A stretch of 64,000 nucleotides of DNA, from NCBI RefSeq assembly GCF_003334385.1, contig NZ_QOWN01000003.1, one strand, 5' to 3'. The position numbers and the translations under genes were made by a program. This DNA is from Escherichia coli. GTDB taxonomy: Bacteria > Pseudomonadota > Gammaproteobacteria > Enterobacterales > Enterobacteriaceae. This document shows positions 25,935 through 27,293 of this stretch, in pieces; the first letter of the stretch is position 1, and every line of letters begins with the position of its first letter. The notes below the pieces were generated by a model, which saw only the letters and a list, made by a program, of their open reading frames with translations, was not told where the DNA came from and ran no database searches.

Positions 25935-27293
25935 ATGGAACAATATGATCAAATTGGCGCAAGACTGGACCGCTTGCCTTTGGCCCGGTTTCATTATCGT
26001 ATATTTGGTATTATAAGCTTTAGTCTGTTATTAACAGGGTTTTTGAGTTACTCCGGTAATGTCGTCTTAGCAAAGCTGGTAAGCAATGGATGGTCAAATA
26101 ATTTCCTCAATGCCGCCTTTACCTCGGCATTAATGTTTGGTTATTTCATCGGCTCACTTACTGGTGGGTTTATTGGTGACTACTTTGGGCGGCGCAGGGC
26201 GTTTCGCATAAATCTTCTCATCGTCGGTATTGCTGCAACAGGGGCCGCTTTTGTCCCTGATATGTACTGGCTCATCTTCTTTCGCTTCCTGATGGGAACA
26301 GGAATGGGGGCGCTGATTATGGTTGGCTATGCCTCATTTACGGAGTTTATCCCCGCGACGGTGCGTGGAAAATGGTCCGCGCGGCTCTCATTTGTTGGTA
26401 ACTGGTCGCCCATGCTGTCTGCGGCGATAGGCGTGGTGGTTATCGCTTTTTTTAGTTGGCGAATAATGTTTCTGCTGGGTGGTATTGGCATACTGTTAGC
26501 CTGGTTTCTCTCAGGTAAATACTTTATCGAGTCGCCACGATGGCTGGCAGGGAAAGGGCAAATCGCAGGTGCAGAATGCCAACTTCGTGAAGTAGAGCAG
26601 CAAATTGAAAGATAGAAGAGTATTCGTTTACCCCCGCTTACTTCGTATCAGAGCAACAGCAAGGTTAAAGTAATCAAGGGTACTTTCTGGCTCCTGTTTA
26701 AAGGTGAAATGTTACGACGTACATTAGTCGCGATTACTGTTTTAATTGCAATGAACATTTCGCTTTATACCATCACCGTATGGATACCGACCATATTTGT
26801 TAACTCCGGCATTGATGTCGATAAATCAATATTAATGACCGCTGTTATTATGATTGGCGCTCCGGTAGGAATATTTATTGCGGCATTAATTATTGATCAT
26901 TTTCCTCGTCGGTTATTTGGCTCCACCTTACTTATTATTATTGCCGTGTTAGGCTATATCTATTCAATTCAGACTACAGAGTGGGCGATTTTAATCTATG
27001 GACTGGTGATGATCTTCTTTTTATACATGTATGTTTGCTTCGCGTCGGCGGTTTATATCCCGGAGCTTTGGCCAACGCATTTACGCCTGCGCGGTTCGGG
27101 TTTCGTTAATGCCGTCGGACGGATCGTCGCAGTCTTCACGCCCTATGGCGTTGCGGCATTATTAACACATTATGGGTCGATCACGGTGTTTATGGTACTT
27201 GGTGTCATGTTATTGCTCTGTGCGCTGGTTCTCTCCATTTTTGGCATCGAAACGCGGAAGGTGTCGTTGGAAGAGATTTCTGAGGTGAATTAA
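25935..27293 (+). pseudogene. ydjE: MFS transporter ydjE interrupted by a single in-frame TAG at 26613-26615
   Basis: ORFs 25935..26615 (226 aa) and 26709..27293 (194 aa) are in the same frame; reading back from 26709 is open until the TAG at 26613-26615. 226 + stop + 31 + 194 = 452 codons, the size of a full-length MFS transporter; both halves align to paralog YdjK. Confidence 0.7.

Follow-up and report, generated by a model that had tools for sequence, protein, structure and literature searches.

In the window analysed here (the whole stretch of Escherichia coli DNA, 64 kb in length, whose positions are used throughout), the MFS transporter gene ydjE appears as two open reading frames (ORFs) that lie in one frame and are separated by an amber codon. 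This arrangement raises the question of whether the gene has genuinely been lost, whether the stop is an error of sequencing or assembly, whether it is read through, or whether a working transporter is made in two halves. We favor the first reading, with a probability of about 0.9: ydjE E227* is a genuine, vertically inherited nonsense allele and an ordinary young, lineage-specific pseudogene. The mutation, its ancestral state, its occurrence in independent assemblies, the position of the stop in the protein topology, and the dispensability of the gene across E. coli are all established.

A nonsense change at codon 227 of ydjE

In the ydj locus, ydjE is preceded by ydjL, ydjK, ydjJ, ydjI, ydjH, ydjG and ydjF and is followed by the convergent pncA, then ansA and sppA. 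A search of positions 25000-28200 yielded no Rfam match and nothing notable in the way of promoter or terminator signals. The features that bear on the argument are listed below; "window-private" denotes a base that differs from both K-12 and strain SCU-104.

19685..21064, + strand: ydjK, MFS transporter gene of the ydj cluster and paralog of ydjE; intact, window-private change Q294L
25060..25818, + strand: ydjF, regulator of the DeoR family, located upstream of ydjE; intact, window-private change I67V
25935..27293, + strand: ydjE, 452-codon MFS transporter gene, in the window a pseudogene interrupted by a single amber codon (99.9% identity to intact ydjE of K-12 and many other strains)
25935..26615, + strand: N-terminal ORF, 226 aa, encoding TM1-TM6 and the central loop up to its midpoint (coordinates include the stop)
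26613..26615, + strand: amber TAG in place of GAG (Glu227), by G-to-T at 26613
26616..26708, + strand: 31 in-frame codons of the central loop, now untranslated from the native start (ORF list, hydropathy)
26702..26711, + strand: Shine-Dalgarno (SD)-like AGGTG (26702-26706) and internal ATG (26709-26711, Met259), a putative restart site
26709..27293, + strand: C-terminal ORF, 194 aa, TM7-TM12 (ORF list, hydropathy)
27386..28027, - strand: pncA, convergent with ydjE (syntenic annotation in SCU-104, strain 4/2-1 and K-12)

Translation of 25935..27293 gave a single internal stop, at codon 227, followed by the normal stop. The coordinates confirm the claim of an earlier note on this DNA that both ORFs share a frame with the TAG at 26613-26615 as the sole interruption, and the codon count given there also holds, 226 + 1 + 31 + 194 amounting to the 452 codons of intact K-12 YdjE. 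As the note had supposed, K-12 carries an uninterrupted ydjE.

The comparison with reference E. coli that the note proposed was run for this codon, and both K-12 and strain 4/2-1, the two compared sequences in which the base at 26613 was read directly, have GAG. Across the 1,359 bases of the gene, the window differs from the intact ydjE of 4/2-1 solely by T for G at 26613, and from that of K-12 MG1655 at two positions, 26613 and the synonymous 27206. The G shared by 4/2-1 and K-12 indicates that the ancestral codon 227 is GAG (Glu) and that the mutation is a G-to-T transversion, E227*. The same comparison supports the proposal that one nucleotide changed recently to give a stop codon in a gene that is intact elsewhere; the suggested route from CAG to TAG was wrong in its first base. 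The site is present in 4,307 complete E. coli genomes; one of them (SCU-104) matched a 61-base probe centred on the TAG exactly, and the remaining 4,306 had at least one mismatch to the probe.

The gene is the orthologue of K-12 ydjE (b1769; orphan MFS transporter, TC 2.A.1.1.92), with which it shares 99.9% identity, length, frame, locus and the ydjF-ydjE-pncA synteny. Codon 227 sets the two apart, being GAG in K-12 and TAG in the window, with the result that the window product ends at residue 226. An in-frame stop thus replaces a sense codon of the intact orthologues while the remainder of the gene stays colinear with them, the pattern of a pseudogene formed by nonsense mutation. Both halves had also been described as colinear with the paralog YdjK, and this is borne out by the alignment of YdjE with YdjK (44% identity, 452 aa, E = 2e-125), in which the peptides quoted in the note pair up, '...IEEGVIRQTGKPLPP' being aligned with '...VEQQIEREKSIRLPP'. 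The paralog had been called adjacent, which it is not; ydjK is located five genes upstream of ydjE.

The position of the stop in the protein was examined using K-12 YdjE as the profile query, a sequence identical to the window product save for codon 227. The intact 452-aa protein matched the Pfam families MFS_1 (residues 28-403, E = 6e-36) and Sugar_tr (residues 55-450, E = 2e-35), in each case across both halves. Hydropathy and the translation display the 6 + 6 arrangement of twelve TM helices and the motifs of an MFS transporter, with GDYFGRRRAF after TM2, IESPRWL after TM6, and GIETRK after TM12. TM6 ends at about residue 193 and TM7 starts at about residue 259, and the hydrophilic stretch of residues 195-258 has helices on both sides (hydropathy). 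Codon 227 is in the middle of this central cytoplasmic loop, between TM6 and TM7. Of all the single-base changes that could create a stop codon in ydjE, 19% fall in this loop, so the position of the stop is unremarkable.

Each ORF matches one half of the MFS profiles only: the 226-aa ORF the first half (for example, positions 57-217 of 398 in TIGR00895) and the 194-aa ORF the second (TIGR00895 positions 250-398 of 398). Intact YdjE scores below the NCBIfam cutoffs of both TIGR00895 (aromatic acid/H+ symporter; 155 bits vs 418) and TIGR00879 (sugar porter; 73 bits vs 238), and the protein is accordingly filed as a generic MFS transporter only. In TCDB YdjE is a sugar porter, yet its best NCBIfam similarity is to TIGR00895 rather than TIGR00879. 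A metabolomics screen has linked ydjE to the export of acetophenone and 3-phenyllactate (PMC10971958), and the similarity to TIGR00895 fits this hint that YdjE handles aromatic acids, 3-phenyllactate for example.

Translation from the native start would end after TM6, and of the twelve helices of the MFS transporter only the N-terminal six-helix bundle would be made. Both bundles of such a transporter are needed for the substrate path and for alternating access, which makes ydjE E227* most likely non-functional. Loss of transport activity is the most likely outcome when the truncation after TM6 is set against this general knowledge of the MFS.

Relatives carrying the allele

The one complete genome with the TAG-bearing 61-mer, SCU-104 (NZ_CP053284.1), is a rectal-swab isolate of phylogroup A and ST8125 (PMC11251922). 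Its ydjE (HHJ22_RS13885) is identical to that of the window at all 1,359 bases, TAG included, and is annotated by RefSeq/PGAP as a pseudogene with an "internal stop"; the ydjE nonsense pseudogene is therefore already known from this sister strain. The earlier note had named relatives that consistently annotate two functional genes as an observation that would speak against a disrupted ydjE. In SCU-104, RefSeq records one pseudogene, and the listing of two ORFs at ydjE comes from automatic gene callers only (GCA_014465035.1, KTE14 and the metagenome contigs).

Over 64 kb, the window and SCU-104 differ by 24 SNPs and 2 indels. In a three-way comparison with K-12, there were 10 sites at which the window and SCU-104 agree against K-12, the TAG among them, 14 sites private to the window, and 12 private to SCU-104. 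The 10 shared differences identify the window and SCU-104 as sister genomes that inherited the TAG. The possibility that the window is SCU-104 itself was considered and rejected, given the 26 differing sites and the K-12 state of the window at all 12 SCU-104-private sites. The closest complete genomes show about 11-12 differing sites per 25 kb relative to the window.

The exact 226-aa product was found in 309 index blocks, and its look-up returned three loci. The first, a contig of GCA_014465035.1 (DABRFT010000001.1), shows no difference from the window along 10,681 bp and has both of the window-private SNPs that this stretch contains. The other two are ENA metagenome contigs (L008 and L009), in which the TAG is present on a SCU-104-like background; L009 derives from a human gut sample. 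In total, the exact product was found on 189 contigs (NCBI, JGI, ENA and Logan), including one of E. coli KTE14. The carriers of the allele most probably form a small natural clade within phylogroup A, which includes SCU-104 (ST8125), GCA_014465035.1 and strains of human gut metagenomes.

The window and SCU-104 also have in common an IS-truncated yeaR at the window edge. No K-12 alignment was obtained for window 1-76, and of yeaR only the final 82 codons remain (77-325). The yeaR junction recurs in SCU-104, where an IS4-like IS421 transposase gene lies just past the window edge. The identity of the junction in SCU-104 implies an IS insertion in yeaR that is common to the clade.

SCU-104 differs from the window in carrying three further lesions: ydjK and chbC are frameshifted, and chbR has a nonsense codon. 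At the equivalent window positions, these are 1-bp deletions at 20809 (ydjK) and 58822 (chbC) and a nonsense change at 60980 (chbR); ydjK, chbC and chbR are intact in both the window and K-12. The three lesions are either further decay or assembly errors. Two other 50-kb stretches of SCU-104, containing about 100 genes, had 0 flagged pseudogenes. In the metagenome contig L008 (ENA ERZ27269179), a 1-bp deletion at the equivalent of window position 23106 divides ydjH into ORFs of 44 and 255 aa, and this is either a second lesion in the cluster or a metagenome assembly error.

Across the 63.9 kb that align with K-12 (window 77-64000), the TAG is the only gene-disrupting difference, and no indels relative to K-12 were found in this interval. 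The 14 window-private SNPs (against K-12 and SCU-104) are located at 1197, 1440, 3908, 7466, 11448, 15425, 17444, 18337, 20565, 25258, 28449, 31683, 37316 and 52001. Twelve of them fall in genes, and 10 of these 12 are nonsynonymous, the changes being dgcP G254S and A335T, nimT G112S, yeaG R520H, yeaD P214S, ydjK Q294L, ydjF I67V, ansA L202F, ydjA R149L and astB P116L. This near-neutral ratio suggests either very recent mutations that have not yet been purged or a mutator history. Among very close genomes dN/dS is time-dependent, and the excess of private nonsynonymous SNPs also fits this dependence. There was no enrichment of mutations in the ydj cluster, the density of private SNPs being the same inside as outside (about 2.2e-4 per site). 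The ydjE nonsense change is best regarded as a further mutation of recent origin and nearly neutral effect in a set of closely related genomes.

Competing accounts of the allele

Loss of ydjE would be tolerated, the gene being dispensable and nothing downstream being affected. With pncA convergent and ydjE the last gene before it, the premature stop has no downstream polar effect. The K-12 ydjE knockout is viable (PMC9405208, PMC10971958), and in about 20% of complete E. coli genomes the entire ydjL-ydjE cluster (window 18582-27293; sugar catabolism) is missing and yeaC abuts pncA. Where the cluster is present, ydjE is interrupted by IS1 in at least five strains, D53-1 among them, and by an IS3-family element in O157:H7 strains such as 2149; IS5-like elements have also hit ydjE in other genomes. 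The disrupted alleles of D53-1 and O157:H7 2149 arose independently in other E. coli lineages and inactivate ydjE by insertion at other positions, in contrast to the point nonsense change of the window. The 194-aa ORF of the C-terminal half is recorded on 616 contigs, compared with 189 for the N-terminal half described here, which hints at further independent disruptions in the upstream part of ydjE.

This record of loss by IS1, by IS3-family elements, by nonsense mutation and by absence of the cluster from about 20% of genomes, together with the hint of more upstream disruptions in the 616 contigs, could be read as a sign that inactivation is adaptive and has been selected for, for example, by closing an entry or exit route of some compound. 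Such selection would be a variant of the main explanation and compatible with it, and we consider it unlikely. Weak or absent selection would lead one to expect repeated loss just as much, and the TAG allele is rare, at 1 in 4,307 complete genomes. In a screen of a knockout library, the K-12 ydjE knockout was more, not less, sensitive to ornidazole, in correlation with the sapB knockout, and no benefit was reported (PMC9405208). We infer that the loss of ydjE was neutral.

A different kind of account holds that the gene still works, with the N-terminal half (TM1-6), made from the native start, and the C-terminal half (TM7-12), made from the ATG at 26709, assembling into a functional transporter. 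The stop does lie in the inter-domain loop, and each ORF encodes a complete six-helix bundle. There is a parallel in LacY, for which co-expressed N6 and C6 halves reportedly complement each other in split-permease experiments; the break there is likewise in the central cytoplasmic loop and leaves two complete half-transporter ORFs. Both LacY halves were deliberately expressed, whereas the C-terminal half of ydjE is known here as an ORF only.

The details of the putative restart site make this account very improbable. The ORF listing has no in-frame start (ATG, GTG or TTG) within 26616..26708, the first after the stop being 26709, and the AGGTG that precedes this ATG is predicted to form a duplex with the anti-SD sequence of -6.9 kcal/mol, compared with -5.9 for the native ydjE start. 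However, intact alleles have the same ATG and SD-like sequence, which speaks against any adaptation, and in anti-SD pairing the site ranks third of the 32 ATGs in the gene and is unexceptional. The restart is also 94 nt beyond the stop, far for re-initiation by a terminating ribosome, and a stop in the central loop is unremarkable in view of the 19% of single-base routes that lead there. The persistence of a clade represented on 189 contigs, with no further lesions in the four ydjE copies examined, might seem to favor retained function. At the observed 2e-4 changes per site, however, each lineage would be expected to gain only about 0.3 changes in 1.36 kb, so the clade is too young for the absence of further decay to be informative. 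RefSeq treats the allele as a pseudogene. Were the account correct, a split but working carrier would explain how the allele persists in a clade found on about 190 contigs.

The function of YdjE could, in principle, also be preserved by full-length translation, through a suppressor tRNA, as the earlier note had suggested, or through near-cognate readthrough of the amber codon. UAG followed by A, as here, is a relatively leaky context, and supE alleles do exist in the collection: the supE form of tRNA-Gln (CUG to CUA, glnV) was matched exactly in 155 of 5,426 complete-genome records. Among the 60 matches listed, the carriers are mostly laboratory K-12 derivatives such as C600 and DH5alpha, and their recovery demonstrates that the probe works. 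Several of the supE records are labelled with hosts such as Homo sapiens, mouse gut or chicken, and their names suggest laboratory K-12 derivatives. The glnV/glnX locus of SCU-104, which carries the same TAG, was found via its annotation and scanned, and both genes are wild-type with CUG anticodons and no supE. The tyrT-type supF allele of tRNA-Tyr had an exact match in none of the 5,426 complete genomes, and the 64-kb window itself contains no tRNA genes. The suppressor suggestion found no support in the loci covered, namely glnV/glnX in SCU-104 and tyrT-type genes in complete genomes. In wild-type E. coli, a background level of readthrough around 1% or lower is usual, and no recoding RNA element was found in 25000-28200. 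We therefore attach hardly any credence to full-length YdjE being made. Programmed recoding (selenocysteine, pyrrolysine or readthrough) was considered separately and rejected, the stop being present in 1 of 4,307 genomes, the codon being UAG rather than UGA, and the region having no Rfam match.

Finally, a sequencing or assembly artefact in a strain whose gene is intact, the other alternative raised by the earlier note, can be dismissed: although the allele is exact in just one of the 4,307 complete genomes and the ydjK and chbC frameshifts of SCU-104 could be long-read errors, those frameshifts are absent from the window, the truncated product occurs on 189 contigs, and the same base was obtained for the window together with GCA_014465035.1, for SCU-104, for two metagenome contigs and for KTE14, an agreement of independent projects and methods that excludes sequencing error.

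Implications for ydjE

For annotation, an inherited nonsense allele means that 25935..26615 and 26709..27293 belong together in a single ydjE pseudogene (E227*) and should not be recorded as two MFS genes. The E227* allele also provides a handy marker for the small phylogroup A clade that carries it. It is a further example of how the orphan transporter YdjE has been lost time and again in nature, and this recurrence suggests that ydjE is weakly selected in many of the niches occupied by E. coli.
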